From positions 1-28,748 of the forward strand of contig DASXQR010000046.1 of the NCBI GenBank assembly GCA_036507075.1: a DNA stretch of 28,748 nt, given 5' to 3'. The DNA comes from Acidobacteriota bacterium. Lineage in GTDB: Bacteria; Acidobacteriota; UBA6911; JACQSX01. Shown here in pieces: positions 1,128 through 20,812 of the stretch (position 1 is the stretch's first letter; the number at the start of each line of letters is the position of its first letter). The notes beneath the pieces were generated by a model. The model was not told the origin of the DNA, made no database searches, and worked only from the letters and a program-made list of their open reading frames with translations. The position numbers and the translations under genes are program-made.

Positions 1128-1493
1128 TTGGAACGCAACTTACGAGAGCAACTGGCCAGTTTGGCTCGAAGTAGAAAAACTCGGCGGGTAGCGTATGAAT
1201 TCCCATGTGAATGGAAACCTAGTGAGGTGGTCAACCCCTGCGACGGCCTCGTATTTACCGACGTCGGCGCCTGGGAGTTCATAGCAGAACTACTCGAAGC
1301 AGACCATCCGATTGAAATCGTGAAGCTTGCAAAACCTCAGGGTCGAACGGCGTTCGTGATGAAGGTGGAAATGGGAAACGAGTATCCGAGGCTGTACATA
1401 AAGCTTCAGGCAGGCAGTGGCCAGGTCCTTGGGCGCAGTTTCCATTACAGCGAGCACGGCCGAGGAGTAAGAAAAGATGAAAACGAACAATAG
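1128..1493 (+). CDS. MqsR-like (RelE-fold) putative toxin
   Basis: 121 aa, C-terminal LYIKL...SFH signature as in MqsR-type RNases; overlaps an MqsA-like gene; TTG start uncertain. Confidence 0.65.
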   Translation: MERNLREQLASLARSRKTRRVAYEFPCEWKPSEVVNPCDGLVFTDVGAWEFIAELLEADHPIEIVKLAKPQGRTAFVMKVEMGNEYPRLYIKLQAGSGQVLGRSFHYSEHGRGVRKDENEQ

Positions 1494-2019
1494 TTTAGGC
1501 GAAATTTCTCCGAGTATTTTGAGTTGTCCTAATTGCGATAGCAACTTGATCGAAACTCAAACGGTTGAGCACCAATTCAAATACGGAGTCGGAAGCGACG
1601 CAGCAGAACTCGTAGCAGACCTCCCGGTCAGAATTTGCAAACGTTGCAATTTAAAATTCTTAGATGAGGCTGCTGAGGTACTGAAGCACGAAGCGATATG
1701 CCGGCATCTAGGCGTTTTAACGCCGGCTGAAATTATGGAGGTCAGACAGGAGTATCAACTAAGCCGAGCAGAATTTTGCGAAATTACAAAAATCGGGGAG
1801 GCAACGCTGGGACGTTGGGAGAGAGGAGCGCTCATTCAGAATGCTGCAAACGATCAATTCCTTTGCCTGCTGAAATTCCCCGAGAATCTCGAACGTCTAA
1901 AACAGCGGAGCAAAGGTTGTTTTCAGAAAGATACAAGTAAACGATTTAAGTTTCTTCAGCCTGATGTTGATCTTTGGACGAAGGCTCGCTGTTTCAGATT
2001 GCGACGGCTAGGAGCTTGA
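1477..2019 (+). CDS. mqsA: MqsA-family antitoxin (Zn ribbon + XRE HTH)
   Basis: CPNC...CKRC zinc ligands, then LTPAEIMEVRQEYQLSRAEFCEITKIGEATLGRWERG HTH; extra C-terminal tail. Confidence 0.85.
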   Translation: MKTNNSLGEISPSILSCPNCDSNLIETQTVEHQFKYGVGSDAAELVADLPVRICKRCNLKFLDEAAEVLKHEAICRHLGVLTPAEIMEVRQEYQLSRAEFCEITKIGEATLGRWERGALIQNAANDQFLCLLKFPENLERLKQRSKGCFQKDTSKRFKFLQPDVDLWTKARCFRLRRLGA

Positions 2020-3831
2020 ATGTACGTACTTACGTTTTATTCGTTTAAAGGCGGCGTGGGGCGAAGTATGGCTCTGATGAATGTTGCAGCCAGTCTCGCT
2101 GAGACAGGCCGCAGAGTTTTGGTTGCGGATTTTGATTTGGAAGCTCCAGGCCTCGATACTTTCGGAATACCTAAGCCATCGGGCCCTACAGCTGGCTTAA
2201 TTGAATATGTAACGACATATTTGAAAACGTCTACATCCCCGCATTTGCTGGATTATGTATACGAATCCGTAGGTATAGGAAAGGACGGCGGCCGCTTGTG
2301 GGTTATGCCTGCCGGTCGACGGGATATGTCATATGCTCAGCAACTTAATTCTATTGATTGGCAGGAACTCTACGCGCGCCAGGATGGATTTCTTATGTTT
2401 GAGGATCTTAGGCTTCAGTGGAGAGAACTCCTTAAACCGGATTATGTCCTAATCGACTCTAGAACTGGCCACACTGACGTAGGAGGAATTTGCACTCGGC
2501 AGCTTCCGGATACTGTAGTCGTTTTCTTCTTTCCCAATGATCAGAATTTGATTGGTCTTCAGCAGATAGTTAGCGAAATACGTGCGGAACGCAAACCGCC
2601 ACAGAATAAGGAAATCCAGCTTATGTTCGTAGCGTCGAACGTCCCAAACCTTGATGACGAAGAGGAGATTCTAGCCGACCGCCTGAGGATCTTTCGTGAG
2701 CGCCTGAAATACCGGGAGTTGGCCGCCACTATCCAAAGGTACGACAGCCTGACTCTGTTAAACCAAAGCATTTTTACCAAAGAGCGACCCCGAACTAGTC
2801 TTGCTAGACAATATCATCAGCTTGCCAAGACTATTATCGAACAGAATCCGGAAGATGCGGAGGGAGCAGTCACATTTATTGAACACCTCAGTGCAGGGCG
2901 TTTAAGAGGGCGGCCATGGCGCCAGCAAGATCTGTCGAAACGTCTTGATTCAATTCAGCGGCTTCATTCAACCGACAAGCAGGTGTTAGTTGCACTTGCT
3001 AAGTATCGAAAGCTGCAGGGCCTCCACAAAGATGCAATTGATCTCTTCGATAGAGTTGAGCAGCTGGGGCTAAAGACAGCCGAGGTATTTGTTGAACGTG
3101 CAGAAAGTAAATTGGTTTTAGAAGCAGCGGATGGTGCCAAGAACGACCTCTTTGAAGCTTTACAGACGACCGGTGGCTCGTCAACTCACATTTTAAGGGC
3201 GATTCGTTTGATTGGCCAGATCGACGACCAGCTTTTGCCGAAAGCTGTAATTCTAAACGGTGTCTCAGGGCTCGATGCAGGCCAAAGGTATGTCCTGGTG
3301 AAGGATTTGCAGCGCTCATATGCTGGTCATGAGGCAGTGCTAAAGCTCTTTGGAATAGAATCTGGCATTGGACCTATTAGCAGCAATATAAAAGCGGATA
3401 TAGTCCTTAGCCTTATCGGCTTGGGACGTTACAGAGAGGCCATGCAGACGATTAGCCTCATAAGAGATCCGGAGAGCTTTGATGTCGTCGAAGCATTTAA
3501 CTACGCCATGGCGGAATGGGGAGATACAGGTGTGCCTCCGGCCGATTTGTTCCGTCGGGCAGCAGCCTTCAGTAAGCAGTTTGACACTGGCAATTTCAAA
3601 CAATGCATGGCGGTGAGTTTTTGGGCAATCGGGAACGTTGCCGAGGCCAGACAGTCTTTAGACAAATCACGGGAGATCAAAAAACGAGTTTCTGGTACGG
3701 AATTCAGTTGTTGGCGGTATCTGCAGGTCGAAGATGACGAGTTTTTTACAGACCTTGGAGAAATCGAACAATTACTAGAAGGCAGCACTCTGTTGCCGTA
3801 CTTTATGAGGCGTCAAACGGCGACAAATTGA
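2020..3831 (+). CDS. ParA/MinD-like ATPase (KGGVGR variant) fused to a TPR-like helical region
   Basis: TFYSFKGGVGRS deviant Walker A, DFDLEAPG, YVLIDSRTG; helical repeat-like C-terminal half; ATG directly follows the mqsA stop. Confidence 0.85.
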   Translation: MYVLTFYSFKGGVGRSMALMNVAASLAETGRRVLVADFDLEAPGLDTFGIPKPSGPTAGLIEYVTTYLKTSTSPHLLDYVYESVGIGKDGGRLWVMPAGRRDMSYAQQLNSIDWQELYARQDGFLMFEDLRLQWRELLKPDYVLIDSRTGHTDVGGICTRQLPDTVVVFFFPNDQNLIGLQQIVSEIRAERKPPQNKEIQLMFVASNVPNLDDEEEILADRLRIFRERLKYRELAATIQRYDSLTLLNQSIFTKERPRTSLARQYHQLAKTIIEQNPEDAEGAVTFIEHLSAGRLRGRPWRQQDLSKRLDSIQRLHSTDKQVLVALAKYRKLQGLHKDAIDLFDRVEQLGLKTAEVFVERAESKLVLEAADGAKNDLFEALQTTGGSSTHILRAIRLIGQIDDQLLPKAVILNGVSGLDAGQRYVLVKDLQRSYAGHEAVLKLFGIESGIGPISSNIKADIVLSLIGLGRYREAMQTISLIRDPESFDVVEAFNYAMAEWGDTGVPPADLFRRAAAFSKQFDTGNFKQCMAVSFWAIGNVAEARQSLDKSREIKKRVSGTEFSCWRYLQVEDDEFFTDLGEIEQLLEGSTLLPYFMRRQTATN

Positions 3832-3996
3832 CACACTGACGACGTGACGTCCGGTAAGGTTTCATGATCCGGGCCAATAATTCGAATCATAGAGGTATCG
3901 CAAGAGGCGATACTTTCTTTTATGCGTCTCACCATCAAATGATGTAATTTACTGAAAACTGGACTTTCTCACCGAGGAATTCAATCCTGGTAATAA

Positions 3997-4258: not shown

Positions 4259-6703
4259 GTGGCTCTGAAGAAATCCCAGCTCTACAGCTCGATCTGGCAA
4301 AGCTGCGACGAACTGCGCGGCGGCATGGACGCATCGCAGTACAAGGACTACGTCCTCACACTACTGTTTATGAAGTACGTGTCGGACAAGCACGCCGGCA
4401 AGTCTGACGCGCTCATCGAAGTGCCCAAGGGAGGCGGCTTCGCCGACATGGTGAAGCTGAAGGGCGACAAGGAGATCGGCGACAAGATCAACAAGATTAT
4501 CGGCCGGCTCGCCGAGGCCAACGACCTCAGCGGCGTGATCGATCAAGCCGACTTCAACGACGAGAGCAAGCTCGGCGCGGGCAAGGAGATGCAGGATAGG
4601 CTCTCGAAGCTGGTCGCGATCTTCGATGGCCTCGATTTCCGCGCCAACCGCGCTGAAGGCGATGACCTCCTGGGCGACGCCTACGAGTACCTGATGCGCC
4701 ACTTCGCCACGGAGAGTGGCAAGAGCAAGGGGCAGTTCTACACCCCGGCTGAGGTGTCCCGCATCATGGCTCAAGTGGTTGGCATCGGCGCCGACACCCG
4801 GCAGGACCAGACCATCTACGACCCCACCTGCGGCTCAGGATCGCTGCTGCTCAAGGCGGCAGACCAGGCGCCGCACGGCATCACCATCTACGGTCAGGAA
4901 AACGACGTTGCCACATGGGCGCTAGCGCGAATGAACATGTTCCTGCATGCCCATCCGACCCACGATCTTTGGCGCGGCAACACGCTCGCCGCACCGCATT
5001 TCAAGAATGAAGACGACAGTCTCAAGACCTTTGACTTCGCGGTGGCGAATCCGCCCTTCTCCGCTAAGGCCTGGTCCAGCGGGCTCGACCCGGCCAACGA
5101 CGCGTTCCGGCGTTTCAAGTACGGCATCCCGCCTGCCAAGAACGGGGACTACGCTTTCCTTCTGCACCTGATCGCCTCGCTCAAGAGCAACGGCAAAGGC
5201 GCGATCATCCTGCCACACGGCGTGCTCTTCCGCGGCAACAAGGAGGCCGACATCCGCCGCAACCTCATCCAGCGTGGCCTCATCAAGGGCATCATCGGCC
5301 TGCCCGCGAACCTCTTCTACGGCACCGGCATCCCGGCCTGCATCGTGGTTATTGATAAGGAGAACGCCCACGCCCGCACTGGCATCTTCATGATCAACGC
5401 CAGCAAGGGTTTCCTCAAGGACGGCAATAAAAACCGCCTGCGTGCCCAGGACATCCATAAGATCGTGGACGTATTCAACCGGCAAGTCGAGCTGCCGCGC
5501 TATGCGCGCATGGTGCCGGTGAGCGAGATCGCGAGCCCCTCTAACGACTACAACCTCAACATCCCCCGCTACATCGATTCGAGCGAGCCAGAGGATCTGC
5601 ACGACCTCGACGCGCACCTGAACGGCGGCATCCCCAATCGCGACATCGACGCGCTCGATGCCTACTGGACCGTCTTCCCCTCGCTGCGCCAGGCGCTGTT
5701 CAAGGATCATGGCCGGACGGGCTACAGCGTGACCCGCGTCGAGACGCACCAGGTGAAGCCCGCCATCCTCGGCCATTCTGAGTTCAGCGCTTATGCGAGG
5801 AGCGTCGGGGCCGTCATCAATGTCTGGTGCAAGGCGCACGAGCCGCAGCTCAAGGGCCTCAAGGTCAATGACCTTCCAAGACAGGTCATCCACACCCTGT
5901 CGGAAGACCTGTTCGCAAGCCTCGGCGACTTGCCGCTGCTAAGCCGCTACGACGTCTACCAGCGCTTGATGGACTACTGGGCGGAGACGATGCAGGACGA
6001 TGTGTACCTGATCGCCGCGGACGGCTGGGTCGAGGCCGCCAAACCGCGCGGGATCATCGACGACAAGGAAAAAAAGATCAAGGAAACGCCGGACCTGACC
6101 ATCGGCCGCAAAAAGTACAAGATGGACCTGGTCCCGCCGACACTGATCGCCGCGCGCTACTTCGCCAAGGAGCAAGCCTCCATCGACGCGTTACAAACCA
6201 AACAGGAAATCGCTGCCCGCGAGTTGGAGGAATTCGTCGAGGAACACACCGGCGACGAGGGCTTGCTGACGGACGCCACCAACGACAAGGGCAAGGTCAC
6301 CAAGGGCGGCGTGAAGGACCGGATCAAGGCTGTCGAAGGTGAGTCGGAAAACGACGAAGAGCGCGATGCCCTTACGCGTTGCCTGGAGCTGATCGAAGCG
6401 GACAGTGACGCCAGCAAGGCCGTCAAGGACGCCCAGGCTGCACTTGATGAGCAGGTGCTGGCAAAGTACGTCACGCTCACAGATGCCGAGATCAAGACAT
6501 TGGTGGTCGAGGACAAGTGGTTCGCCAGCATCCGCGACGGCATCGAGGGCGAGGTGCAGCGGCTGACCCAGCAACTGGCCGAGCGGGTGAAGGAACTGGA
6601 AGGACGCTACGCCCGGCCGCTGCCGGAACTGGAGCAGGGGGTGGAGGCGTTCACCGCCAAGGTCGAGGGACACTTTAAGAAGATGGGACTGGTTTGGGGA
6701 TGA
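4259..6703 (+). CDS. hsdM: Type I RM N6-adenine methyltransferase subunit M (long form)
   Basis: GQFYTP, DPTCGSGS (motif I), NPPF (motif IV), LPHGVLFRG. Confidence 0.97.
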   Translation: MALKKSQLYSSIWQSCDELRGGMDASQYKDYVLTLLFMKYVSDKHAGKSDALIEVPKGGGFADMVKLKGDKEIGDKINKIIGRLAEANDLSGVIDQADFNDESKLGAGKEMQDRLSKLVAIFDGLDFRANRAEGDDLLGDAYEYLMRHFATESGKSKGQFYTPAEVSRIMAQVVGIGADTRQDQTIYDPTCGSGSLLLKAADQAPHGITIYGQENDVATWALARMNMFLHAHPTHDLWRGNTLAAPHFKNEDDSLKTFDFAVANPPFSAKAWSSGLDPANDAFRRFKYGIPPAKNGDYAFLLHLIASLKSNGKGAIILPHGVLFRGNKEADIRRNLIQRGLIKGIIGLPANLFYGTGIPACIVVIDKENAHARTGIFMINASKGFLKDGNKNRLRAQDIHKIVDVFNRQVELPRYARMVPVSEIASPSNDYNLNIPRYIDSSEPEDLHDLDAHLNGGIPNRDIDALDAYWTVFPSLRQALFKDHGRTGYSVTRVETHQVKPAILGHSEFSAYARSVGAVINVWCKAHEPQLKGLKVNDLPRQVIHTLSEDLFASLGDLPLLSRYDVYQRLMDYWAETMQDDVYLIAADGWVEAAKPRGIIDDKEKKIKETPDLTIGRKKYKMDLVPPTLIAARYFAKEQASIDALQTKQEIAARELEEFVEEHTGDEGLLTDATNDKGKVTKGGVKDRIKAVEGESENDEERDALTRCLELIEADSDASKAVKDAQAALDEQVLAKYVTLTDAEIKTLVVEDKWFASIRDGIEGEVQRLTQQLAERVKELEGRYARPLPELEQGVEAFTAKVEGHFKKMGLVWG

Positions 6704-7995
6704 GCACTGAGGCCAGACAGGTCAAGGAACCTTCCGCCAGCAACTTGGCCCAGGCCGACGTGGCCGACGTACCGCCGGGCTACAAACGTACTGAGGCGGG
6801 AGTGATTCCGCAAGATTGGAACGCAGAGCCGCTTCTGACCGTGCTTCGGCTCCCGACGGGTCAGGTTGACCCGCGTCGCGAGCCATACCGCTCGATGGTA
6901 CTGGTTGCACCTGATCACGTAGAAGTGGCAACAGGTCGCCTACTCACGAGGGAGACATCGGCTGAGCAGCAGGCTATCAGCGGCAAGTACCCGTTCAGGT
7001 CGGGAGACATTGTCTACAGCAAGATTCGCCCTTACCTGCGAAAAGCAATCCTTGCGGACTTCGACGGTCTTTGTAGTGCGGACATGTATCCGCTGTCACC
7101 GACACCCGATGTCTCACCCGGCTTCATGCTGGCAGTTCTACTGGGTCACGACTTCTCGACCTTTGCTGAAGGTGTCTCTGCGCGCAGTGGCATTCCGAAG
7201 ATCAACAGAGATGAACTAGCTGAGTACCGTGTCGCCCTCCCTTCGCACCCCGAACAACGCGCCATCGCCGAGGTGTTATCGGATGTGGCTGGATTGCTCG
7301 GGGCGTTGGAGACGCTAATCGCCAAGAAACGGGCCATCAAGCAGGGCGCCATGCAACAACTCCTCACCGGCAAGACCCGCCTGCCGGGCTTCAGCGGGGA
7401 GTGGGACGCGAAGCGGCTGGGGGACTTCGCGTCGATCCGCAATCAGAAGCTGCTTCCAGCCAACCTGGCTCCAGAGACCCCGTGCGTGGAACTGGAGCAT
7501 ATTGGTCAAAACGACGGGCGGCTGCTGGCGTGTTCAGCGGCAAAGAATTCAACATCGATCAAGTACAAGTTCCTAACTGGCGATGTGCTGTTTGGCCGCC
7601 TTCGTTCGTATCTTCGCAAGTTCTGGCTCGCCGACCGTGACGGAATCTGCACGACAGAGATATGGCCACTGGTTGTCGATCCTCAGCAGGCTGTCGGCGG
7701 GTTTCTTCATGCTGTCGTGCAAACCGATCGGTTCATCGAGGCTTCGAGCATTTCATACGGCACTCACATGCCACGTGCAGACTGGGGAGTGATGCGAAAC
7801 TTCGAGATCTATCTTCCCCAATTAGATGAACAGACTGCTATCGCGACAGTCCTTTCGGACATGTATGCCGAGATCGTCGCGCTGGAGCACCGCCGCGACA
7901 AGACCCGCGCGATCAAGCAGGGCATGATGCAGCAGCTCCTCACCGGCCGCCTGCGGTTGGTGAAGCCGGCATCGCAACCGGAGGCGGCGTGCTGA
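6700..7995 (+). CDS. hsdS: Type I RM specificity subunit S
   Basis: Two TRDs each followed by EQxAIAxVLSD...AIKQGxMQQLLTG; ATGA overlap with the hsdM stop. Confidence 0.95.
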   Translation: MSTEARQVKEPSASNLAQADVADVPPGYKRTEAGVIPQDWNAEPLLTVLRLPTGQVDPRREPYRSMVLVAPDHVEVATGRLLTRETSAEQQAISGKYPFRSGDIVYSKIRPYLRKAILADFDGLCSADMYPLSPTPDVSPGFMLAVLLGHDFSTFAEGVSARSGIPKINRDELAEYRVALPSHPEQRAIAEVLSDVAGLLGALETLIAKKRAIKQGAMQQLLTGKTRLPGFSGEWDAKRLGDFASIRNQKLLPANLAPETPCVELEHIGQNDGRLLACSAAKNSTSIKYKFLTGDVLFGRLRSYLRKFWLADRDGICTTEIWPLVVDPQQAVGGFLHAVVQTDRFIEASSISYGTHMPRADWGVMRNFEIYLPQLDEQTAIATVLSDMYAEIVALEHRRDKTRAIKQGMMQQLLTGRLRLVKPASQPEAAC

Positions 7996-8525
7996 ACACC
8001 TTCGCCAAGTTTCTTCTGGTCTCAACTTCCTTGTCCCCGCTGTTGGGCGCGGTAGCCGTTAACCAATTCGCCCGTGGCGAGCCCATGGGGCGCTGGGGTG
8101 CTTGGCTGGTTGCAGCTCTGCTCCTGGTGTTCCTCTGCTGGGCTCTCTTGCGATACTCGGCCAAGAACGCGCAACAGCACGCTTTCCGCATCAAGGAGTT
8201 CGAGCGCAACGACAAGGAAGTGCTGGCTTTTCTAGTCACGTATCTACTGCCGTTTCTATCCACCGACAAGATGGGCTTCACCGGCAGCTGGCTAACGGGT
8301 GCATATGTGCTCGCCATCATCTTTCTCGTCATCGCTCATGCAGGCGCGTTTCACTTCAACCCGGTCATGGGGCTGCTCGGATATCACTTCTATGCCGTCA
8401 AGAACGACGACGGTATTTCCCATCTGCTGATCAGCAAGGAAGAGTTGCGGCGGCCGGGCAAGGACGTTCCGACAGTGCGGCTCGCTCACAACCTCTATCT
8501 GCACACCGGGGGTGCGGATGCTTGA
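7989..8525 (+). CDS. kwaA: Kiwa KwaA-like membrane protein
   Basis: Four hydrophobic segments, TYLLPF and FNPVMGLLGYHFY motifs; directly upstream of a KwaB-like gene. Confidence 0.7.
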   Translation: MLNTFAKFLLVSTSLSPLLGAVAVNQFARGEPMGRWGAWLVAALLLVFLCWALLRYSAKNAQQHAFRIKEFERNDKEVLAFLVTYLLPFLSTDKMGFTGSWLTGAYVLAIIFLVIAHAGAFHFNPVMGLLGYHFYAVKNDDGISHLLISKEELRRPGKDVPTVRLAHNLYLHTGGADA

Positions 8526-9396
8526 GAACTTCCAGCTTGTGGCGGTCGTCAAGCAAGGCCAGATTCGTCTGCTGCGGATTCCACTTCATCAGAGTTTGCA
8601 GCAGAAGCTTGCGGAGAGCTGGCAAGTTCAGTTCGACGCATTTGTCGGAGACGTACAGGAGATCGACTTCAACCCCGGCTACCAGCCGGAGCAGCACGAA
8701 CGCTTCTGTCTGCAAGACTATGACCTGCCCGACTCGTTGGCGAACGAAACCAGCCAGACAATTCAGAACCTCGACCCAATCAATAACAACGAAGCGCTCG
8801 TCGATTCGATCAAGGGCATCGTGGCCTTCGCGCGCGACGCCGAGGGAGCGGAACTTGTATTATTTCAGAATTTCAGCCGCTCCCACGTGATCCAGCCCGG
8901 ACGCTTTCTGTTCCTGCAGAACAATACCTATAAGACAACGGAACACTCGGGGCTGACCCTCGACAGCAGATTGAGCGCTGTGTATCTGCCCGTCGACAGG
9001 AAGCTGCTCTTCCACAACTTCCGCACTGTCAATAGTTTTCTGCCGCTAGCCGACTTCTATGAGGAGGCCTCGGAGCAGCAGATTCGCGACGTGCTGGCTC
9101 ACGAGCGACTGGCCGCGGAGGACGCGGACGCCTTGGCGACGGATTCCAATCAATGGTTTCGTAAGCGGTTTGCGATGCTCAGGGATTCAGGTGTCCTCGA
9201 CCAGTACTCCGCGAAGCAGATCCAACAGCGGGCAAAGGGGTACGACGTGGAAGTTCATATCTCAAAGGGCAAGATCGTCTTTCCCGCGGAGAAGCCGGCG
9301 GCCAAGAAGCTATTGCAGTTTCTGAATGAAGAGCTCTTCCTGGGAGCGATTACCGACACACTGTACGAAACCAACTCAAAGAGGGAAGCTGACTGA
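8518..9396 (+). CDS. kwaB: Kiwa KwaB-like (DUF4868) protein
   Basis: ~290 aa soluble; LFQNF, GLTLD, LLFHNF and terminal LLQFLNEELF...YETNSKR pattern typical of DUF4868. Confidence 0.75.
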   Translation: MLENFQLVAVVKQGQIRLLRIPLHQSLQQKLAESWQVQFDAFVGDVQEIDFNPGYQPEQHERFCLQDYDLPDSLANETSQTIQNLDPINNNEALVDSIKGIVAFARDAEGAELVLFQNFSRSHVIQPGRFLFLQNNTYKTTEHSGLTLDSRLSAVYLPVDRKLLFHNFRTVNSFLPLADFYEEASEQQIRDVLAHERLAAEDADALATDSNQWFRKRFAMLRDSGVLDQYSAKQIQQRAKGYDVEVHISKGKIVFPAEKPAAKKLLQFLNEELFLGAITDTLYETNSKREAD

Positions 9397-12300
9397 TGAA
9401 CGCCGTCGGCCAGCGGGAACTCCTCACGCAGAAGAGCGTGGTTGCGTTCCTCAAGGACGTGCTGGGCTATGCCTACCTCGGCCACTGGAAGGACCGCCCC
9501 GACAACAGCAACGTCGAGGAGGCCCTACTCACCGATTGGCTTAAGCGCCAGAGCCATAGCGAGAAGATCATCGGAAAGGTGCTGTTCGAGCTGGGAAAGG
9601 CCACCGCGTTCGGCGGCAGCAAAACACTCTACGACGCGAACCGCGAGGTGTACAGCTTGCTCCGCTACGGCGTGAAGGTCCGGCCGGACGTGGGCGAGCA
9701 GCACGTCACGGTCTGGCTGATCGACTGGGAGAACCCTGGCTATAACGACTTCGCCATCGCCGAGGAAGTGACCGTGGCCGGGGAGAATAACAAGCGGCCC
9801 GACATCGTGCTCTACGTCAACGGCATCGCCCTCGGCGTGCTGGAGCTGAAGCGTTCCATCGTATCGGTAACGGAAGGTATCCGGCAGAACCTGGACAGCC
9901 AGAAAAAGGACTTCATCCGGCCGTTTTATGCCACGGTGCAACTCGTAATGGCGGGCAACGACACCGAGGGACTGCGTTACGGCGTGATCGAGACGCCGCA
10001 GAAGTACTGGCTGCGCTGGAAGGAAGGCGACGCACAGGCGGCTGCCGGCGACAACCCGCTGCTGCGCGAGTTGGGCCAGCTCTGCGCGAAGGAGCGTCTG
10101 CTCGAGCTCGTGCATGATTTCATCGTGTTCGACGCAGGCATAAAGAAGACCTGCCGCCACCACCAGTACTTCGGCGTACGCGCAGCGCAGACGCGCGTGC
10201 AGCGGCGCGAGGGCGGCATCCTCTGGCACACCCAGGGCAGCGGCAAGAGCCTAATCATGATCTGGCTCGCAAAGTGGATCCGCGAGCACGTGACAAATAG
10301 CAGGGTATTGATCATTACCGACCGCACGGAGCTAGACGAGCAGATAGAGAAGTTCTTCCTGGGCGTCAACGAAGGCATCTATCGCACGAAGAGCGGCGCA
10401 GACCTCGTACGCGTTCTCGACGTGGGCGAGGAGTGGCTGATCTGCTCGCTGATCCACAAGTTCGGCGCGTCGGAGGAAGGCGACATCGATCTCTTCCTCG
10501 AGGACATTCGAAGCCACTTGCCCAAGGGGTTCTACGCCAAGGGTGACATCTTCGTCTTCGTGGACGAGTGCCACCGCACGCAATCCGGCAAGCTGCATGA
10601 CGCGATGAAGGCGCTGCTGCCGGGGGCGATGCTGATCGGCTTCACCGGGACGCCGCTGCTAAGGGACGACAAGCGGCGGAGCATCGAGACCTTCGGGCCG
10701 TACATCCACACCTACAAATACGACGAGGCGGTGCGCGACCGCGTGGTGCTCGACCTGCGCTACGAGGCGCGCGACATCGACCAGAACATCACGTCGCAAT
10801 CCAAGATCGATCAGTGGTTCGAGCTCAAGACTCGGGGATTGACCGACGTGGCGAAGGCGCAGCTCAAGCAGCGCTGGGGCACGATGCAGAAGGTGTTGAG
10901 CGCCCGCGACCGGTTGACCCAAATCGTCAACGACATCCTGCTTGACATGGAGACGCGCGATCGGCTCAAGAGCGGCCACGGAAACGCACTGCTGGTCTCG
11001 GGCAGCATCTACTCGGCCTGTCGGTTCTTTGAGATGTTCCAGAAAACGGATCTGGCGGGCAGGTGCGCGATTGTCACGTCCTACAGGCCGTCGCCGGCGG
11101 ACATCAAAGGTGAGGAGACAGGCGAGGGACTGACGGAGAATTTGCGGCAGTACGACATCTACCGGAAGATGCTCGCCGCGCACTTCAACGAGCCCGAAGA
11201 AACGGCTATGTACAAGGTCGAGCAGTTCGAGAAGGAGGTGAAGAAGCGCTTCGTCGACGAACCCGGCCAGATGAAGCTGCTGATCGTTGTGGACAAACTG
11301 CTGACCGGATTCGACGCGCCGCCAGCCACCTACCTCTACATCGACAAACAGATGCAGGACCACGGGCTGTTTCAGGCGATTTGCCGGGTCAACCGCCTGG
11401 ATGGTGAGGACAAGGAGTACGGCTACATCATCGATTACAAGGATCTCTTTCGGTCGCTGGAGGAGTCCATCAAGGACTACACCGGAGAAGCCTTCGCTGG
11501 CTACGATAAGGCCGACATCGAGGGCTTATTAAAGGATCGGCTTCAGCAGGACCGGGACCGGCTGGAGGAGGCGCGCGAGGCGGTCAAAGCGCTGTGCGAA
11601 CCGGTGGAGCCGCCGCGCGATACGGCGGCTTATCTCCGCTACTTCTGCGCAGTCGACAGCGGCAATGCCGAGCAGTTGAAGGACAACGAGCCGAGGCGCG
11701 TAGCGCTCTACAAGCTCGCTGCCGCGTTCCTGCGGGCTTACGCCAATCTGGCCAACGAAATGCTCGAGGCCGGGTACTCCGCGGCGGAGGCGCGTGAAAT
11801 CAAGGGCGAGGTCGACCACTACGAGAAAGTGCGCGAAGAGGTCAAGCTAGCCAGCGGTGACTACATCGACATGAAGATGTACGAGCCGGCCATGCGCCAC
11901 CTGCTGGACACCTACATCCGGGCCGAAGAAAGCGAGAAGCTCTCGGGCTTCGACGATCTGACGCTGGTGCAGCTGATCGTGGAGCGCGGCGAAGCGGCCG
12001 TTGACGCGCTTCCCAGGGGCCTGCGCGAAAACCGCGAGGCGGTGGCGGAAACAATCGAGAACAACGTCCGCCGGCTGATCATCGACGAGATGGCCGTTAA
12101 CCCGAAGTACTTCGAGAAGATGTCCGAGCTCCTCAACGCTCTGATCGCGCAGCGCAAGCAGGAGACGATGGACTACAAGGCCTACCTGGCAAGGATCGTC
12201 GCGCTTACCAAACAAGTGAGCCAGCCAGAGACCCAGTCGTCCTATCCCTCGAGCATCAACAGCGCCGCACTGCGCGCGCTGTATGACAACCTGGAAGATG

Positions 12301-12539
12301 CCAGGGTGCTGGCAGTACGGGAGCGATCGGCGCCTTACGGCTCCGCTCCAGACGCGGAAGCCAGAGAAGCAAAGGCTCTGGCGCTGGATCGTGCCGTCCG
12401 CCGGATAAAGAAGGCGGACTGGCGCGGCAACAAGTTCAAGGAACGCGAGGTCCGCAACGCTATCCAGTCGGTACTCGGTGCGAATAGGGGTCTGGTGGAC
12501 ACTATCTTTGAGATTGTAAAGAATCAGCGTGAGTACTAA
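9396..12539 (+). CDS. hsdR: Type I RM restriction subunit R
   Basis: RPDIVLYVNG..ELK nuclease motif, HTQGSGKS, DECHR, GFTGTP, LLTGFD, QAICRVNR. Confidence 0.97.
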   Translation: MNAVGQRELLTQKSVVAFLKDVLGYAYLGHWKDRPDNSNVEEALLTDWLKRQSHSEKIIGKVLFELGKATAFGGSKTLYDANREVYSLLRYGVKVRPDVGEQHVTVWLIDWENPGYNDFAIAEEVTVAGENNKRPDIVLYVNGIALGVLELKRSIVSVTEGIRQNLDSQKKDFIRPFYATVQLVMAGNDTEGLRYGVIETPQKYWLRWKEGDAQAAAGDNPLLRELGQLCAKERLLELVHDFIVFDAGIKKTCRHHQYFGVRAAQTRVQRREGGILWHTQGSGKSLIMIWLAKWIREHVTNSRVLIITDRTELDEQIEKFFLGVNEGIYRTKSGADLVRVLDVGEEWLICSLIHKFGASEEGDIDLFLEDIRSHLPKGFYAKGDIFVFVDECHRTQSGKLHDAMKALLPGAMLIGFTGTPLLRDDKRRSIETFGPYIHTYKYDEAVRDRVVLDLRYEARDIDQNITSQSKIDQWFELKTRGLTDVAKAQLKQRWGTMQKVLSARDRLTQIVNDILLDMETRDRLKSGHGNALLVSGSIYSACRFFEMFQKTDLAGRCAIVTSYRPSPADIKGEETGEGLTENLRQYDIYRKMLAAHFNEPEETAMYKVEQFEKEVKKRFVDEPGQMKLLIVVDKLLTGFDAPPATYLYIDKQMQDHGLFQAICRVNRLDGEDKEYGYIIDYKDLFRSLEESIKDYTGEAFAGYDKADIEGLLKDRLQQDRDRLEEAREAVKALCEPVEPPRDTAAYLRYFCAVDSGNAEQLKDNEPRRVALYKLAAAFLRAYANLANEMLEAGYSAAEAREIKGEVDHYEKVREEVKLASGDYIDMKMYEPAMRHLLDTYIRAEESEKLSGFDDLTLVQLIVERGEAAVDALPRGLRENREAVAETIENNVRRLIIDEMAVNPKYFEKMSELLNALIAQRKQETMDYKAYLARIVALTKQVSQPETQSSYPSSINSAALRALYDNLEDARVLAVRERSAPYGSAPDAEAREAKALALDRAVRRIKKADWRGNKFKEREVRNAIQSVLGANRGLVDTIFEIVKNQREY

Positions 12540-13257
12540 ACGGCATCAAATCGAGGTCCGAGGGCTGCCCATCGAGGTGGTCCGCAAGGACATCAAGAAT
12601 CTCCATGTGGGCGTGTATCCCCCGGGTGGACGGGTACGAGTAGCCGCACCGCTGCGCCTTGATGATGACGCCGTGCGGCTCGCCGTCATCTCACGCCTGG
12701 GATGGATTCGTCGGCAGCAGGCGGGCTTCGTGCAGCAGGTGCGCCAGTCAGAGCGCGAGTTCGTGACTGGCGAAAGCCACTACTTCGAGGGCCGTCGCTA
12801 CCGTCTCCGTGTGATCGAACATGCGGGCCCGCCGTCTCTGGGCCTGCCGAATAACACCACCATGGAATTGCGTGTGCCTCCGGAGACCAACCGGCAGAAG
12901 CGGGAAGCCTTGCTTCAGGCCTGGTATCGGCGACGGCTTCGGGGGCATATTCCACCACTTCTCGCCAAGTGGGAAACCAGGGTCGGCGTAATGGTTGCCG
13001 AAGCACGCATTAAGAAGATGAAAACGCGCTGGGGGAGCTGCAATGCCGCGGCACGGCGTATCTGGCTGAATCTCGAGCTGGCCAAGAAGTCGCCTTCGTG
13101 CCTGGAGTACATCCTAGTGCACGAGATGGTCCACATCCTTGAACGGTGCCACAATGAACGGTTCCGCGTGCTGATGGACACGCTGATGCCCACATGGCGC
13201 CTATGCCGGGAGGAACTGAATCGGGCACCCTTGGCGCATGAGGAGTGGAAGTATTGA
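12529..13257 (+). CDS. M48/YgjP (DUF45)-family metallopeptidase-like protein, common hsdR neighbour
   Basis: KMKTRWGSC, LNLEL, HEMVH zinc motif, HNERF. Confidence 0.9.
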   Translation: MSTKRHQIEVRGLPIEVVRKDIKNLHVGVYPPGGRVRVAAPLRLDDDAVRLAVISRLGWIRRQQAGFVQQVRQSEREFVTGESHYFEGRRYRLRVIEHAGPPSLGLPNNTTMELRVPPETNRQKREALLQAWYRRRLRGHIPPLLAKWETRVGVMVAEARIKKMKTRWGSCNAAARRIWLNLELAKKSPSCLEYILVHEMVHILERCHNERFRVLMDTLMPTWRLCREELNRAPLAHEEWKY

Positions 13258-13272
13258 GCCACCCTGGGCACT

Positions 13273-13334
13273 GCATAACAATCGGTTCCAGCGGCTGGCG
13301 CTGCGCGGCCTGCCACTGAACCGGAGCGTTAGAC
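13273..13334 (+). other. attC site 2 (canonical, 62 bp)
   Basis: R'' GCATAAC, 5 nt, L'' GTTCCAG ... L' CTGAAC (one extra-helical base), 6 nt, R' GTTAGAC; 15 nt after the stop codon. Confidence 0.9.
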
Positions 13335-13339
13335 CGCCG

Positions 13340-14080
13340 ATGAACCGTCCGCACGCCATGAATACCGACAACTTTCTGGCAGGTCACAGGAGGTACTTTT
13401 TAGGATCGTACGATCAATTCGTCTCATTCGGTGGACCATGCGTTTACTTCCATCGCGAATGCCTCCGCGAGCGAGATAGATCGTTTCTCTCGCGTCGCCA
13501 TATTGAGATGTTGTACGCAACGCTCGCCGCGTGGGGCATGCACCGAATGGGCGACGCAGACAGAACGAAGACGAAGCTGACTGACTGGGAACAGTTTCAC
13601 GGATCCATTCTTGCGAATGCATCAGCGCTTGGCGACTTCCGCGAGTACAAGATCCTGGAAATCTCCGACGGCGATTACTCCGCTGCACTCAAGAGACTCC
13701 GGCCCATCTACGAGTCCCTCCGGTTGTCTGCGTCGGGAGCCACCGTTGTCGTGAACTCGAAGGCCTTGCACCACGTGCTGCCGGAGTTCATTCCTCCGAT
13801 TGATCGGCAGTACACGATTCGATTCTTCACCCAATCTCCCGATCGTTGGCGGGATTCGAAAGGGAAGTTCCGGCTGATCTCTTTGCCATCTGGACTGGAA
13901 GCTCAATTCTGCACCTTTTGTGAGACGTGCATTGCGTTCAAGCACCTGGCTGATCGGGTAGACCGCGCGCTGTTCGACAACGAGCGCAATCAGCATGGCG
14001 TCACCGCGCCAAAGGCCTTGGACAATGCGATAGTCAACTACGTCAGAATTGTCGGAGCAGCGAAGCCACCGGCGGTCTAA
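13340..14080 (+). CDS. Cassette-borne hypothetical protein, possibly HhH DNA-glycosylase-like
   Basis: Fills the cassette 13329-14148; YATLAAWGM and SKALHHVLPEFIPPIDR motifs; start is 13340 or 13358; TAA stop lies inside R''. Confidence 0.8.
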   Translation: MNRPHAMNTDNFLAGHRRYFLGSYDQFVSFGGPCVYFHRECLRERDRSFLSRRHIEMLYATLAAWGMHRMGDADRTKTKLTDWEQFHGSILANASALGDFREYKILEISDGDYSAALKRLRPIYESLRLSASGATVVVNSKALHHVLPEFIPPIDRQYTIRFFTQSPDRWRDSKGKFRLISLPSGLEAQFCTFCETCIAFKHLADRVDRALFDNERNQHGVTAPKALDNAIVNYVRIVGAAKPPAV

Positions 14081-14661: not shown

Positions 14662-15429
14662 ATGAACCTCGCCTTGCTGGACAGCCGACTCGTTGTAGCC
14701 GTGATTGCGGGCGTCCTGGGTTTCATCTTAGCGCTCCTGACCCAGAGGATCCTCGGCAAGCGGGGTCTCTTCACCTACTTCGTGTGGCACAACAGACTTG
14801 GCGTCTCCGCAGACGATGCGATATTCGGATCTGTGCGAGTTACGTGGAACGACAATCCTGTCGCGAACCTGTATTCTTCGACCGTCGAATTGCGGAATGA
14901 GAGTTTCAACGACTACGACAATGTCGTCGTCCGTGTGTTCACGAATGATACGTTTCTCCTTACGGAAAGGACAGACATCGTCGGAACCACCCACTTCCTC
15001 AACTGGACCGACGAGTTTTCGAATCGGCTTGTAGTACAGCCAGGCACACAGCCAACTATAGCTCAGCAAAATCTGTATAGGAGCCAGCGTGATTACTTGG
15101 TTCCGACTATGAATCGTGGGCAGATCGTGCGTTTCACTTTTCTAAATGCGCCGACGTCGGACAAGCCGTCGCTCTGGCTCGATATTTTGCATAAGGGCGT
15201 CAGGCTCAAGTTTCGCTTGGCCCAGACTCAGTTCCTCGGCGTTCCTCAACCTGCTGCCGCACTAGTGGGTGCGGCCCTCAGCCTGGTCGTTCTGGCAGTA
15301 GTGGTCTCACTCGTTGATAGTGTGTGAGTGGCGGCAATTCTGTGCCTAGTGTACGGATTGATCGTTCTGGTACCAGGAGCTCTGTCGATCAGGTTGTGGC
15401 GGTGGCTCAAAGATTTGTTGGGCGGTTGA
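14662..15429 (+). pseudogene. Cassette-type membrane protein (TM - soluble domain - 2 TM) with a premature stop
   Basis: TGA at 15325-15327 is followed in frame by VAAILCLVYGLIVLVPGALSIRLWRWLKDLLGG and a stop at 15429. Confidence 0.7.
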
Positions 15430-15984: not shown

Positions 15985-17133
15985 ATGCCTGACCCGATCG
16001 AGACGTATCGCGCAGAGGCCACACAGCGCATCCAACTTGCAAATTCCCAAGGTGGGTGGGAAGGAATTCACACCGATTTCAAGGTATCGCTCGGTACAAC
16101 ACCGCGGGACCTCGCAAGACTCCTAAAACACATCCTGGCGTTTGGAAATACCCCGAGGAGCACCGAGGCATACATAATTTGCGGCGTCAGTGAGAATAAG
16201 CAAAATGGCACGTTCACTCACGTGGGCGTCTCAGACCAAGGATTCCCTTCATCCGAGAGACTGTATTCGTTGCTTAAAGAATATACCGATATCCGTGACG
16301 TCTTTATTGACGCCCATTTCTACCTCGACGACCGTCGGACACCGTACATCGTGATTCCACTCCAGTACGAGGGGCCGTGCGCCTTAATAAAAAAGTTTCA
16401 GGGAGCCGCTAGCACTGTGATCCCAGACGAAATTTACTGTCGGTACGGCAGTAGCAGCATGCCAGCAATGCCAAGAGACGTTCGCAGGATGCATGCGGAT
16501 TGGGCCACGTGGTTTCTTGATTGCCGATACGAGAAGAGTGCGGCTGCGATGGTAACGGCGCTATCAAAAAGATTTCCTCGGCACTCGTCGCTGACTACCA
16601 CAGGTGATTACGTCCGTCTCGTGTATGAGAGCGACGTCAGTGACGAATTTGGCCAGCGGACTGCGCCGGCTCTCATTCATGCATACTGGGGATTTGCTCC
16701 CGTACCACGCGCGGCATATGTCGCGAAACTCCCTCTCCGCGTCTTATTACGTAGCCTTCCCGATAAACGAGTTGTACAAGCCACAGTGCCGCTGCTTTCG
16801 CTAATCGCCGCGACGGATTCTCAAGAAAGCATTCAGCTAGCGAAGGAAACGCTGGAGCACTTGACCACCCATGGTCGCAATTTCTGCGACGTGCTTCGAA
16901 AAATCAAGCAGGATAAGGGAACATGGGTGGATTCGATGCTGCTGAGAGACCTCAATATCAAAGAGACTGACCTGCTTGACAGCAGTTATTACGAGTCACT
17001 CTTCACAAAAATGCTCAGGATGCAATCGGTTGATCGAAAAACACAACAGTATGTAGACCGCACCATTCGCGCGATTCAGGGAGAGAAGCATCGGCAAACG
17101 GCACGCGTGAAACAGTACCGCAGCGCTCGCTGA
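15985..17133 (+). CDS. Schlafen/AlbA_2-domain protein, possibly internally deleted
   Basis: DFK...LLKHILAFGNT...YIICGVSE and YCRYGSSS pattern of AlbA_2; remainder not recognised. Confidence 0.7.
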   Translation: MPDPIETYRAEATQRIQLANSQGGWEGIHTDFKVSLGTTPRDLARLLKHILAFGNTPRSTEAYIICGVSENKQNGTFTHVGVSDQGFPSSERLYSLLKEYTDIRDVFIDAHFYLDDRRTPYIVIPLQYEGPCALIKKFQGAASTVIPDEIYCRYGSSSMPAMPRDVRRMHADWATWFLDCRYEKSAAAMVTALSKRFPRHSSLTTTGDYVRLVYESDVSDEFGQRTAPALIHAYWGFAPVPRAAYVAKLPLRVLLRSLPDKRVVQATVPLLSLIAATDSQESIQLAKETLEHLTTHGRNFCDVLRKIKQDKGTWVDSMLLRDLNIKETDLLDSSYYESLFTKMLRMQSVDRKTQQYVDRTIRAIQGEKHRQTARVKQYRSAR

Positions 17134-17163: not shown

Positions 17164-17366
17164 GACTAGAGCCTGACACCGAGACGGACGCTAAATGGCT
17201 GCCGGGTTTGAAATTTGACTTGAACGAATCTTGTTTTCCCGGTGGGGCAGACCAGGGAAATGTTCGCTGGTTTTGCCGAGAAAGAAAAGACCAGTGCCTG
17301 TCACCCAGAAGGACGCTAAATGACTGCCGGATTTGAAATTTGACTCGAACGACTATTGTTTTCCGG
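17164..17366 (+). repeat. Two tandem diverged copies of the left end of the 308-562 element
   Basis: GCCTG(T/A)CACC..GGACGC..TTTGAAATTTGACT(T/C)GAACG..TGTTTTCC at 17164-17269 and 17289-17366. Confidence 0.85.
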
Positions 17367-17664
17367 GTGAGCCAACTAGGAAGGGCCTGTCTTGGCTGCC
17401 GGAACTGGCCCTTGCGCGCGCCAAACCGGTAGACGAGAAAGGCGCGCCCTGTCCTCTGGCTCGAGCACGTCTAGGCTCGCCCAGGCGGCCTCAATGGTTC
17501 CACGATTGGTCCGAGCTCGTCACCAGTGGCGAGCGGACATGGAATCGTCGAAGGCCTGATTCTTCGGACCGTCGCGTACATAGGTCCGGAGTAGATGCGC
17601 GGCAGATGAGGCGATCGGCACGCGGACATCTGGGCCCTTCGGGTGCGTCCTCTTCGACATCGAC

Positions 17665-18022
17665 TCAGTAAACATCCAGATCCCGGCCGACTACCACTTT
17701 GCCCGGGTAACGTGATTGCAGCTCTTTCAGCAATTCTTCAGGCGCGGACGCGGTGGGGCTCAGGGCTGGGCGCAGGACAATTGAGGCGTGATAGACAATC
17801 AGCAGGCGGGGTTTCGCTTTGGCGGCGAGTTCGGCTAGTTGCACGGTCGACGTGTGGTATTTGGCGGCAAAGGATTGGAAGGTCTCGGGATGTTTTGCCA
17901 GCGAGGCCAGGGTGTTGGCTTCGTGGATCAGCACGTCGTAGCCGCGGCAGGCATCGATGGTCGCCTGTGTCGGGTTGGTGTCGCCTGAGATGACGATCCT
18001 GCGGTCCGGTCTGTCGAACCGG
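17665..18022 (-). pseudogene. Duplicated 3' third of the MBL-fold hydrolase gene at 20813-21766
   Basis: 17663-18022 aligns without gaps to 20811-21170; last 118 aa differ at 8 positions. Confidence 0.93.
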
Positions 18023-20650: not shown

Positions 20651-20812
20651 TGTGATCGGCGCTATTTAGGAATCTCGATATGCTGGACGCTTTGATATGC
20701 CGTCGGCAAGCTACTAGAGCGCGGCGTCAGACGTCAAACTCCAGCCGCTGTCCGCCGAATCAAACGGATGTTTTACTCGCGCTTCTGTCAGGCTGACGGG
20801 CCCACTGTTCAC

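Follow-up and report, generated by a model that had tools for sequence, protein, structure and literature searches.

How could a ParA-type ATPase act on a toxin-antitoxin (TA) pair encoded directly in front of it? This question is raised by three coupled genes in the window, the whole 28,748-nucleotide stretch of an Acidobacteriota genome that was analysed here. The features are as follows, with positions in the window.

1014-1025, no strand: palindrome 1, GATCATATGATC; likely MqsA operator
1065-1076, no strand: palindrome 2, GATCATATGATC; likely operator, overlaps the putative -10
1128-1493, + strand: gene 1 (TTG start, 121 aa); predicted RNase toxin of MqsR fold (BECR/RelE), from a family without a Pfam model
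1477-2019, + strand: gene 2 (180 aa); MqsA-family antitoxin with zinc ribbon, XRE HTH, variable linker and conserved tail
1939-2007, + strand: tail motif of gene 2 (residues 155-177); predicted ParA-docking peptide
2020-3831, + strand: gene 3 (603 aa); KGGVGR ParA with TPR-like repeats
2020-2844, + strand: gene 3 residues 1-275; SIMIBI NTPase of MinD/ParA fold
2845-3831, + strand: gene 3 residues 276-603; TPR-like helical repeats, putative sensor
3892-3926, + strand: candidate intrinsic terminator 3' of gene 3; 10-pair stem and T run

Organization and recurrence of the triad

The tight packing of the genes that the preliminary description had seen was confirmed in position: genes 1 and 2 overlap by 17 bp, and the TGA of gene 2 (2017-2019) directly abuts the ATG of gene 3 (2020). 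An AGGA(G)-type site lies 5-10 nt upstream of each of the three starts. Terminator-like matches over the region show no excess (3 versus 4.0 in shuffles). The triad is indeed more AT-rich than the neighbouring hsd genes (GC 0.483 versus 0.608 for hsdM+hsdS+hsdR; 0.561 for the genome), and the adjoining defence array reads hsdM-hsdS-kwaA-kwaB-hsdR-YgjP. A repeat of ~80 bp flanks a 16.8-kb block in the window.

That the triad recurs came from neighbourhood searches in two directions. Of 67 related ATPase loci whose upstream DNA is long enough, 61 have all three genes in the same order, and in a search that started from the toxin the ATPase adjoins it at 13/13 loci (9/9 genomes, 4/4 plasmids), none of which has toxin and tailed antitoxin without ParA. 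At 70% identity, the 70 triad loci fall into 60 clusters, and all four full-length matches on viral contigs carry the triad. We consider it almost certain that the three genes are a functional unit. In two genomes, the toxin and tailed antitoxin are followed by exactly the ParA domain (profile positions 1-274); no TPR lies within 19 kb, and the tail is intact.

The distribution is patchy. In the phylum, 9 of 401 genomes have the triad, as do 2 of 40 relatives; it is present in 1 of 301 genomes of a Planctomycetota sample (the centre genome only), and at one locus in a GTDB scan with gene 2 alone; members are found on plasmids and viral contigs and near integrases. Defence genes are neighbours at 13 of 31 loci and, among arbitrary windows, in 2 of 17 (p 0.05, with taxa and thresholds unmatched), but at only 1 of 8 loci in same-phylum genomes, while 12 of 23 long metagenome/MAG loci adjoin RM, CBASS, Thoeris/BREX, HerA, SIR2 or DarT-NADAR genes. 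The link to defence islands is modest.

Gene 1 is a predicted MqsR-type toxin

The database gene call begins at residue 34 and would give an 88-aa form of gene 1. We rejected this start: homologues align from residues 2-7, R6, L12 and R19 are conserved, and the N-terminal helix is modelled at pLDDT >90, so the 121-aa form is taken as correct.

Searches with gene 1 and its family returned no match in Pfam, NCBIfam, PADLOC or PDB sequences, and none of 130 family members matches Pfam MqsR_toxin (PF15723) at E 0.1. The family has 420 representatives at 50% identity, and on 4/4 plasmids the toxin gene is unannotated. The MqsR/RelE fold proposed in the preliminary description is supported by the AF2 model (pLDDT 92.5), for which E. 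coli MqsR (3hi2_D) ranks top of 48,161 chains with Z 8.9 and rmsd 2.6 over 87 residues, the runner-up scoring 5.3. With Foldseek, nothing matched at E 0.001 and NTF2-like folds came first at low TM-score; MqsR, at E 0.15 by Foldseek alone, has the highest probability and TM-score among the matches listed. The ESM Atlas offered leads towards MqsR clusters and nothing firmer.

Y90, K92, F105 and H106 are invariant in 130/130 members. Of the MqsR toxicity residues K56, Q68, Y81 and K96, Y81 aligns with the invariant Y90 as an exact match and K96 with the invariant H106, while K56 and Q68 are unmatched, in chained alignments with an HHalign probability of 13.8. Gene 1 is very probably a toxic RNase.

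The antitoxin carries a conserved C-terminal tail

Gene 2 passes TIGR03830 (64.9 bits; cut-off 61.8), falls below the Pfam MqsA_antitoxin cut-off (PF15731; 27.3 versus 30), has its zinc ribbon cysteines at C17/C20/C54/C57, and its profile matches MqsA (3gn5) across positions 2-123 (E 2e-7). The C-terminal tail noticed in the preliminary description extends ~40 residues past the TIGR03830 match and has a conserved motif, (R)F-x-x-L...F-x-L, represented in gene 2 by R156, F157, L160, F173 and L175. Among 73 sequences, the anchors are F in 62, L/I/V in 61, F/W/Y in 72 and L in 66, and in 58 the residue before the first anchor is basic (R 47, K 11). The length of the tail was considered as a marker of the system and rejected, since unlinked MqsA-family proteins are extended too, with other sequence.

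The motif itself separates the two groups. A tail profile scored 2.7-29.7 bits on all 13 held-out ParA-linked antitoxins and 2.1 bits or less on all 14 unlinked MqsA-type controls, the marginal scores being 2.7 for one of the linked antitoxins and 3.1 for a HicB-like antitoxin. In the same subfamily, 3/3 MqsA copies without a coupled ParA have neither tail nor toxin. The tail persists on a second toxin/MqsA type (type B), whose ParAs form a single clade nested within the family (SH-aLRT 85, from a quick tree); HHalign did not show the two toxin types to be homologous, nor type B to be homologous to MqsR (probabilities 1.3 and 0.7). It is also present on a HicA/HicB-like pair of a Polymorphobacter plasmid beside a 37%-identical ParA-TPR, while the E. 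coli and Janthinobacterium homologues of that pair have neither tail nor neighbouring ParA. Judged by sequence, the tail follows ParA across differing toxin-antitoxin cores and is absent from uncoupled MqsA.

The free end of the tail mostly runs 4-7 residues beyond the last anchor. Acidic ends are rare, at 1/85 tails compared with 51/130 for gene 1 and 428/2325 genome ORFs. Ala-Ala ends occur in 14/85 tails; gene 2 in the window ends in LGA. Unlinked control MqsA tails frequently end in AA as well, and Ala-Ala by itself is insufficient as a degron (PMC10862746). The composition of the tail end would thus hint only softly at a protease degron.

The ParA-TPR protein and predicted docking of the tail

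Gene 3 passes the KGGVGR model NF047398 (174.8; cut-off 90), and its TPR matches, including those of Pfam, are weak. Its motifs comprise Walker A KGGVGR(S/T), DxD at 37/39, PG at 43-44, Walker B at D141-D146, and N207. Walker A/B, DxD and N207 are conserved at 93-100% across the family, with K10-G-G-V-G-R15 in 98%, D37/D39 and P43 invariant, and G44 at 96%. The NTPase domain superimposes on MinD (4v02) with Z 23.7 and rmsd 2.6 over 233 residues. Residues 276-603 are all-helical repeats in the AF2 model, of which 318-405 match TPR structures at Z ~13, a score level usual among helical repeats, and a conserved FSCWRY hairpin at the C-terminus closes the TPR-like part. Conservation is 0.41-0.50 in this part compared with 0.61-0.77 in the ParA domain. 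In PADLOC, gene 3 matches PDC-M28B (E 7.9e-36) and genes 1 and 2 have no match, so only the B component of PDC-M28 is present; a literature search on KGGVGR and PDC-M28 found nothing relevant.

How the tail could meet this protein is suggested by complex modelling. The tail and the ParA domain, modelled as a monomer, scored 0.76 against 0.47 for the best control; 116 of 157 solved complexes score at least as high as this mark, as do 2 of 215 mismatched pairs. The runs used our own alignments and ligands, outside the calibration of the tool. Contacts agree in at least 90% between runs, with partner pLDDT of 68-70. Because ParA/MinD-peptide complexes have already been solved, likeness to them may help the score. 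The predicted site is a surface of ParA (residues 71-76, 114-136, 151-161 and 186-195) made of the insert that follows the DxD strand and of the helices beyond Walker B. Three runs with full-length gene 3 gave no contact between tail and TPR, and the physical link between antitoxin and ATPase is accordingly refined to a predicted contact with the ParA domain only.

Interface residues are not more conserved than the remaining ParA (0.725 versus 0.695, p 0.61). The predicted contact residues are kept at 13-14 of 20 positions in tail-linked ParAs, compared with 3-9 of 20 in TIR/FxsC-linked or PDC-M28-type ParAs. We judge it probable from the models that the gene 2 tail binds the ParA domain of gene 3.

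Relation to known systems

The preliminary description knew of no system that combines an MqsRA pair with a KGGVGR ATPase. This is superseded by a preprint on TA-ParA apoptosis systems, which are ternary with TPR sensors and whose listed subtypes include MqsR-MqsA (Li, Burroughs, Aravind, bioRxiv 10.64898/2026.10.19.760177, October 2026). The architecture is therefore already described, its antiviral role there being only proposed. By its motifs, the operon agrees with the BECR subtype of ConB2 as the main text of the preprint gives it: a type II TA pair of MqsR-MqsA type (BECR toxin and HTH antitoxin in an operon) with a ParA fused to TPRs in conserved gene order, Arg in place of the second Walker A Lys, and PG following DxD. 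The preprint, a purely computational study, proposes a 'switch' without specifying it. In its main text the words operator, palindrome, degron, protease and ClpX do not occur, and 'tail' is used once, in an unrelated sense; the conserved antitoxin tail and the palindromic candidate operator ATCATATGAT found here go beyond that text.

E. coli MqsR-MqsA (PDB 3hi2, 3gn5; PMC2791442) shares the toxin-first order, the MqsR fold, the zinc-ribbon and XRE-HTH antitoxin, and two promoter palindromes (here putative operators). In contrast, gene 1 has 12% identity to MqsR and a C-terminal SFH in place of SFK, and the 40-residue antitoxin tail and the third gene are present only here. TAC systems (MqsRAC, HigBAC, CmdTAC) likewise have three genes, and their antitoxins have a C-terminal extension with aromatic anchors that can move between TA families and is recognised by the third protein (here predicted), the ChAD tails being the precedent (10.1101/2024.02.24.581848, PMC5105189). 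The third protein here is a 603-aa ParA-TPR NTPase instead of a SecB-like chaperone, docking is assigned to one domain and putative sensing to another, and the tail sequence is conserved family-wide. PDC-M28 and TIR/FxsC-linked KGGVGR ParA systems have the same NTPase family (PDC-M28B; NF047398), but their upstream genes lack the tail.

A possible mechanism and its alternatives

We argue that the predicted MqsR-type RNase is probably neutralised by the MqsA antitoxin, whose zinc domain would bind the toxin and whose HTH dimer would repress the operon at ATCATATGAT, as in MqsRA. In the third protein, the ParA domain is the predicted docking site of the conserved tail, and the antitoxin would therefore likely need ParA to survive. 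By analogy with TAC systems, ParA could shield the tail, whose free end may serve as a protease tag. If the TPR repeats then receive a signal, likely in the form of a phage product, ParA may change its nucleotide or dimer state and free the tail, so that the antitoxin would be destroyed and the RNase released to arrest translation. This TAC-like 'addiction' of the antitoxin to ParA, with ParA as the release switch of the toxin, is our best reading, offered tentatively at slightly less than an even chance. The preliminary description had already suggested that the ATPase controls antitoxin stability; that the toxin is controlled in this way is, on our analysis, evenly balanced, and an anti-phage role of the operon is somewhat favoured.

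A wider version of this reading is possible, if doubtful: the tail could be a portable 'ParA-addiction' tag grafted on unrelated antitoxins (two MqsA types, one HicB-like, and perhaps the helical antitoxin of an REase-like toxin), bringing them under a ParA NTPase switch that has a TPR sensor of its own. TAC logic would then have evolved a second time, independently, with a nucleotide switch in the place of the chaperone deciding during phage infection whether the antitoxin survives, and TA-ParA systems in general would be coupled in this way.

The same tail could instead be a MinE/ParB-like regulatory peptide that sets the ATP cycle of ParA, the toxin being freed when a stable ternary complex switches conformation, with no degradation of the antitoxin; this would be the switch model of the preprint with the tail as the coupling. 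The predicted site falls, by our mapping, in the region that the preprint's main text names as the ParB/MinE partner surface, and the frequent basic residue before the first anchor (58/73) and the conservation of every ParA catalytic motif fit such a peptide. Contact between tail and ATP is not readable from a monomer model, however, and this alone would leave unexplained both the non-acidic tail ends and a sensor-less ParA kept beside an intact TA pair. We regard it as unlikely, though with an appreciable share of the probability. Still less probable is a selfish module for addiction or stabilisation that belongs to mobile islands and plasmids and that ParA regulates with no phage trigger. 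The patchy spread, the plasmids, viral contigs and integrases, the ~80-bp repeat around the 16.8-kb block, the single defence-flanked locus among eight in the phylum and the two genomes that have lost the TPR all suit it. A 330-residue TPR-like part would, however, be superfluous for simple addiction and is retained in most members, and 12 of the 23 long metagenome/MAG loci lie beside defence genes.

TPRs commonly bind C-terminal peptides, and the repeats instead of ParA could be the receptor of the tail, with a phage peptide competing for it; the three full-length runs without TPR contact and the intact tail in members wholly without TPR speak against this. Alternatively, the KGGVGR domain could be a catalytically dead scaffold, since related MinD/ParA-like domains were called predicted inactive (PMC7159879), but the 93-100% conservation of Walker A/B, DxD and N207 argues otherwise. 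Together, we think these two very improbable.

TA-ParA systems were proposed only weeks earlier from genomics, with no link between ParA and the TA pair stated in the main text of the preprint. The tail motif with its predicted site, the candidate operator and the variants that naturally lack the TPR make that proposal open to point-mutant experiments. If true, a ParA/MinD-type switch would gate a toxin via a MinE- or ChAD-like peptide, which would add a sensing logic to bacterial immunity and provide a portable tag for ParA control of proteins.

Candidate operator and promoter

The GATCATATGATC palindrome stands in perfect form at 1014 and at 1065, and the 6.1-Mb genome has no further copy. 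Both copies had escaped the preliminary description. If 1 mismatch is allowed, the core ATCATATGAT precedes 61 of 68 family loci compared with 7 of 2267 background windows; going by these sequence counts, it is likely a family-wide palindromic operator. A promoter scan called none upstream of gene 1, and the site at palindrome 2 is not among its calls. In the family, 22 of 104 palindrome sites have a 5/6-or-better match to TTGACA 16-18 bp upstream, a count without a control. In the window, palindrome 2 contains a putative -10, TATGAT (1070-1075), preceded by a weak -35, TTGTTT (1047-1052).

Results

The preliminary description knew of no system that combines MqsRA with a KGGVGR ATPase-TPR. That claim of novelty falls, since a preprint (bioRxiv 10.64898/2026.10.19.760177) already defines such systems. 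In its available passages, a TA-ParA system is a type II toxin-antitoxin (TA) pair with a ParA carrying a C-terminal sensor, mostly TPRs; the clade is marked by a Walker A Arg and a PG motif, and MqsR-MqsA is one BECR subtype. The triad of the window has all the sequence features tested, and is a member of this recently predicted kind rather than a new system. The passages returned from PMC7159879 and PMC11980606 contained no such triad.

The three genes are coupled by a 17-bp overlap and a TGA-ATG junction, are more AT-rich than the hsd genes (GC 0.483 against 0.608) and adjoin a defence array (hsdM-hsdS-kwaA-kwaB-hsdR-YgjP, downstream), all as had been described. The features are (positions on the forward strand):

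1128-1493, gene 1, predicted MqsR-fold toxin
1477-2019, gene 2, MqsA-family antitoxin
2020-3831, gene 3, ParA-TPR ATPase
4259-13257, type I RM with Kiwa between hsdS and hsdR, then YgjP-like metallopeptidase
7989-8525, kwaA
8512-9396, kwaB
13238-14080, 14662-15327 and 15985-17133, three orphan ORFs after YgjP

Gene 1, with 420 relatives at 50% identity clustering, had no match in any family library searched. Its structure model (pLDDT 92.5), compared with 48,161 chains, matched E. coli MqsR best (Z 8.9, rmsd 2.6, 87 residues; next row 5.3), and many RelE/ParE toxins ranked below, which upholds its earlier reading as MqsR-like. Toxicity of MqsR requires four residues, Y81, K96, K56 and Q68, according to passages of PMC2791442. 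In gene 1, Y90, K92, F105 and H106 are invariant (130 sequences); chained alignments pair Y90 with MqsR Y81 and H106 with K96, and give no counterpart for K56 and Q68. Because of the fold match and the invariant residues, with two of the four toxicity positions aligned, the predicted RNase activity of gene 1 is likely. Gene 2 is an MqsA-family protein with a zinc ribbon and an HTH. Residues 1-275 of gene 3 form a MinD/ParA-fold NTPase (Z 23.7 to MinD) with Walker A (KGGVGR), DxD, Walker B and N207 all intact, followed by TPR-like helices that are less conserved than the ParA domain.

Recurrence of the triad was borne out from both ends. Of 546 confirmed metagenome matches to the ATPase, the best 80 were taken together with three genome loci, one being that of the window, a sample skewed to close ATPase relatives. 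Toxin and MqsA precede the ATPase in the same order in 61 of the 67 of these loci with at least 1200 nt upstream; MqsA alone was found in five and neither gene in one. Three of the five MqsA-only loci have a different toxin, one has lost the toxin and one is apparently chimeric. The 70 triad loci make 60 clusters at 70% identity. From the toxin side, the gene occurs in 9/401 genomes of the phylum (five of one genus, one the window's own genome) and adjoins MqsA and the ATPase in all nine, as it does in 4/4 plasmids (Rhizobium, Massilia). The triad is also on four viral-database contigs, and its distribution is patchy (2/40 close relatives).

Two perfect 12-bp palindromes lie upstream of the window triad, with no further copies in the 6.1-Mb genome. 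Within 200 nt upstream, ATCATATGAT (at most one mismatch) is present in 61/68 toxin-bearing loci, three of 71 being excluded for short upstream DNA; 40 have it exactly and 42 have at least two sites, compared with 7/2267 windows from other parts of these loci and 6/1360 shuffles. As ATCATATGAT contains TATGAT, with a near-consensus -35 at 16-18 bp for 22/104 sites (an uncontrolled count), the putative operator would likely repress by covering the -10. The element was absent from three loci checked that have a second toxin family and a different MqsA subtype, as expected if the HTH reads the site. E. coli MqsA likewise binds two promoter palindromes (PMC2791442, in part). At L077:5200-7863, which has no toxin gene, two perfect operators directly precede MqsA and ParA-TPR, and a CBASS locus adjoins.

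After a variable linker, the antitoxin ends in a conserved tail, (R/K)F-x-x-(L/I/V)-x12-14-(F/W)-x-L, with the anchors in 62, 61, 72 and 66 of 73 sequences. The tail profile recovered held-out ParA-linked antitoxins (7/7, then 6/6) at 2.7-29.7 bits, a margin that is thin in two cases over unlinked MqsA-type proteins (14/14 at 2.1 bits or less) and six genes that lie upstream in other KGGVGR systems (2.2 bits or less). Length was ruled out as a marker, as several unlinked controls are also extended, by other sequence. Where an MqsA of this subfamily has no ParA coupled to it, the protein stops after the HTH (3/3) and a toxin is lacking (3/3).

The tail goes with ParA when the TA core is swapped. 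It is retained at seven loci where MqsA is of another subtype, four of which show the second toxin family; the ParAs of these seven group in a single nested clade (support 85 in a quick tree). That toxin family (~115 aa, unannotated, no Pfam match) is seen in L016, L028, L063 and L070; L017, L022 and L048 were assigned by antitoxin. On Polymorphobacter plasmid NZ_CP081849.1 (L174:3091-5842), a pair that we take to be HicA/HicB-like, with no Pfam match, carries a tail of similar kind (3.1 bits) together with a full-length ParA-TPR of 37% identity. Two HicB-like homologues examined out of 353 records both lack tail and ParA. The subtypes that section 24 of the preprint (bioRxiv 10.64898/2026.10.19.760177) lists do not include HicAB.

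A complex of antitoxin residues 135-180 with the full-length gene 3 protein and ATP/Mg, modelled with our own alignments, scored 0.76 against 0.47 for the best control. That mark is reached by 116/157 solved complexes and 2/215 mismatched pairs, a rough guide only given our alignments and ligands; the score may also have been raised by resemblance to ParA/MinD-peptide complexes of known structure. Contacts agree between the three runs to 90% or more, at a partner pLDDT of 68-70. The confident contacts join ParA 71-76, 114-136, 151-161 and 186-195 to tail residues 155-177; none involves the TPRs. By our own mapping, the predicted site would fall in the general region that the preprint's available text names for ParB/MinE partners. 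Of 20 predicted contact residues, 13-14 are kept in tail-linked ParAs with other TA cores and 3-9 in TIR-type or other unlinked ParAs; among family members, conservation at the interface does not exceed that of the remaining ParA domain (p 0.61).

Discussion

We favour, with slightly less than even confidence in the whole chain, a mechanism in which antitoxin stability would depend on ParA docked at the tail. A precedent comes from toxin-antitoxin-chaperone (TAC) systems, where, in the accessible parts of 10.1101/2024.02.24.581848 and PMC5105189, a C-terminal antitoxin extension with aromatic anchors confers SecB dependence and is portable between TA families, and a phage protein can trigger the toxin. 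The tail behaves in the same way across genomes, with ParA as its predicted receptor in place of SecB. The preprint's model, a computational proposal, is that a ParA switch reorganises the TA pair after sensing (bioRxiv 10.64898/2026.10.19.760177, in part). We regard a purely allosteric switch, in place of ParA-dependent stability, as somewhat less likely, and the data are compatible with both. Tail ends are acidic in 1/85, against 51/130, 28/121 and 428/2325 in controls, and Ala is the final residue in 29/85, which is compatible with a candidate protease tag beside the docking motif; however, Ala-Ala occurs in only 14/85, unlinked antitoxins have the trait too, and an Ala-Ala end is not sufficient alone (passages of PMC10862746). 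A general role of the tail as a ParA-addiction tag is a tentative suggestion, somewhat doubtful. Neither tail-ParA coupling nor the operator was found in the literature searched or the preprint's main text; its supplements may bear on both.

In two genomes (L154/G221 and L155/G367), ParA stops where its domain ends and no TPR lies within 19 kb. Toxin, tail and operator-like sites are all preserved there, and congeners have the full protein at the same locus. This fits a ParA that is not losable and a sensor that is, although simple decay is possible. Shorter TPR parts occur in L022, L028 and L069.

The association with defence is modest. Defence-type neighbours within 5 kb were seen at 12/23 long metagenome/MAG loci and 1/8 same-phylum genome loci, or 13/31 pooled against 2/17 arbitrary 10-kb windows (p 0.05), by our own reading of Pfam hits, with thresholds and taxa differing between loci and controls, three of 20 control windows excluded for size, no neighbours from the selected locus L041, and a gene caller often on the wrong strand in GC-rich DNA. 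An addiction role is possible, because members are on plasmids and beside integrases and a 16.8-kb block of the window lies between copies of an ~80-bp repeat. The copies (308-386, 17164-17249 and 17289-17374; 82-86% identical) flank the triad, the RM-Kiwa array and the later orphan genes, have two weak matches elsewhere in the genome, and are possibly an island boundary or integration-site relics.

Several minor observations were made. Orphan ORFs 13238-14080 and 14662-15327 gave no significant match; 15985-17133 has a weak N-terminal match to PADLOC PDC-S50 (E 1.7e-8). In L013, L029 and L050 a gene of ~375 aa and one for a HerA helicase come directly after the triad as recurring fourth and fifth neighbours, two of the three loci also having a DNA methylase. 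L162:7243-10765 (G379), a lead for a fourth TA core, has a presumably REase-like gene, a small helical protein whose end is loosely tail-like (2.2 bits, inside the control range) and a distant 861-aa KGGVGR ParA. ParA-less MqsA-family antitoxins at L126-L128, L133 and L137-L139 have in common a different C-terminal extension, with a conserved Trp near its end and often an Ala-Ala terminus. Window positions 17663-17962 and 20811-21110 are 300-nt duplicates (93% identical) in which the 3' end of a gene with a metallo-beta-lactamase fold is repeated, with a Fic/DUF4172 gene and a small DUF2283 gene pair between them.
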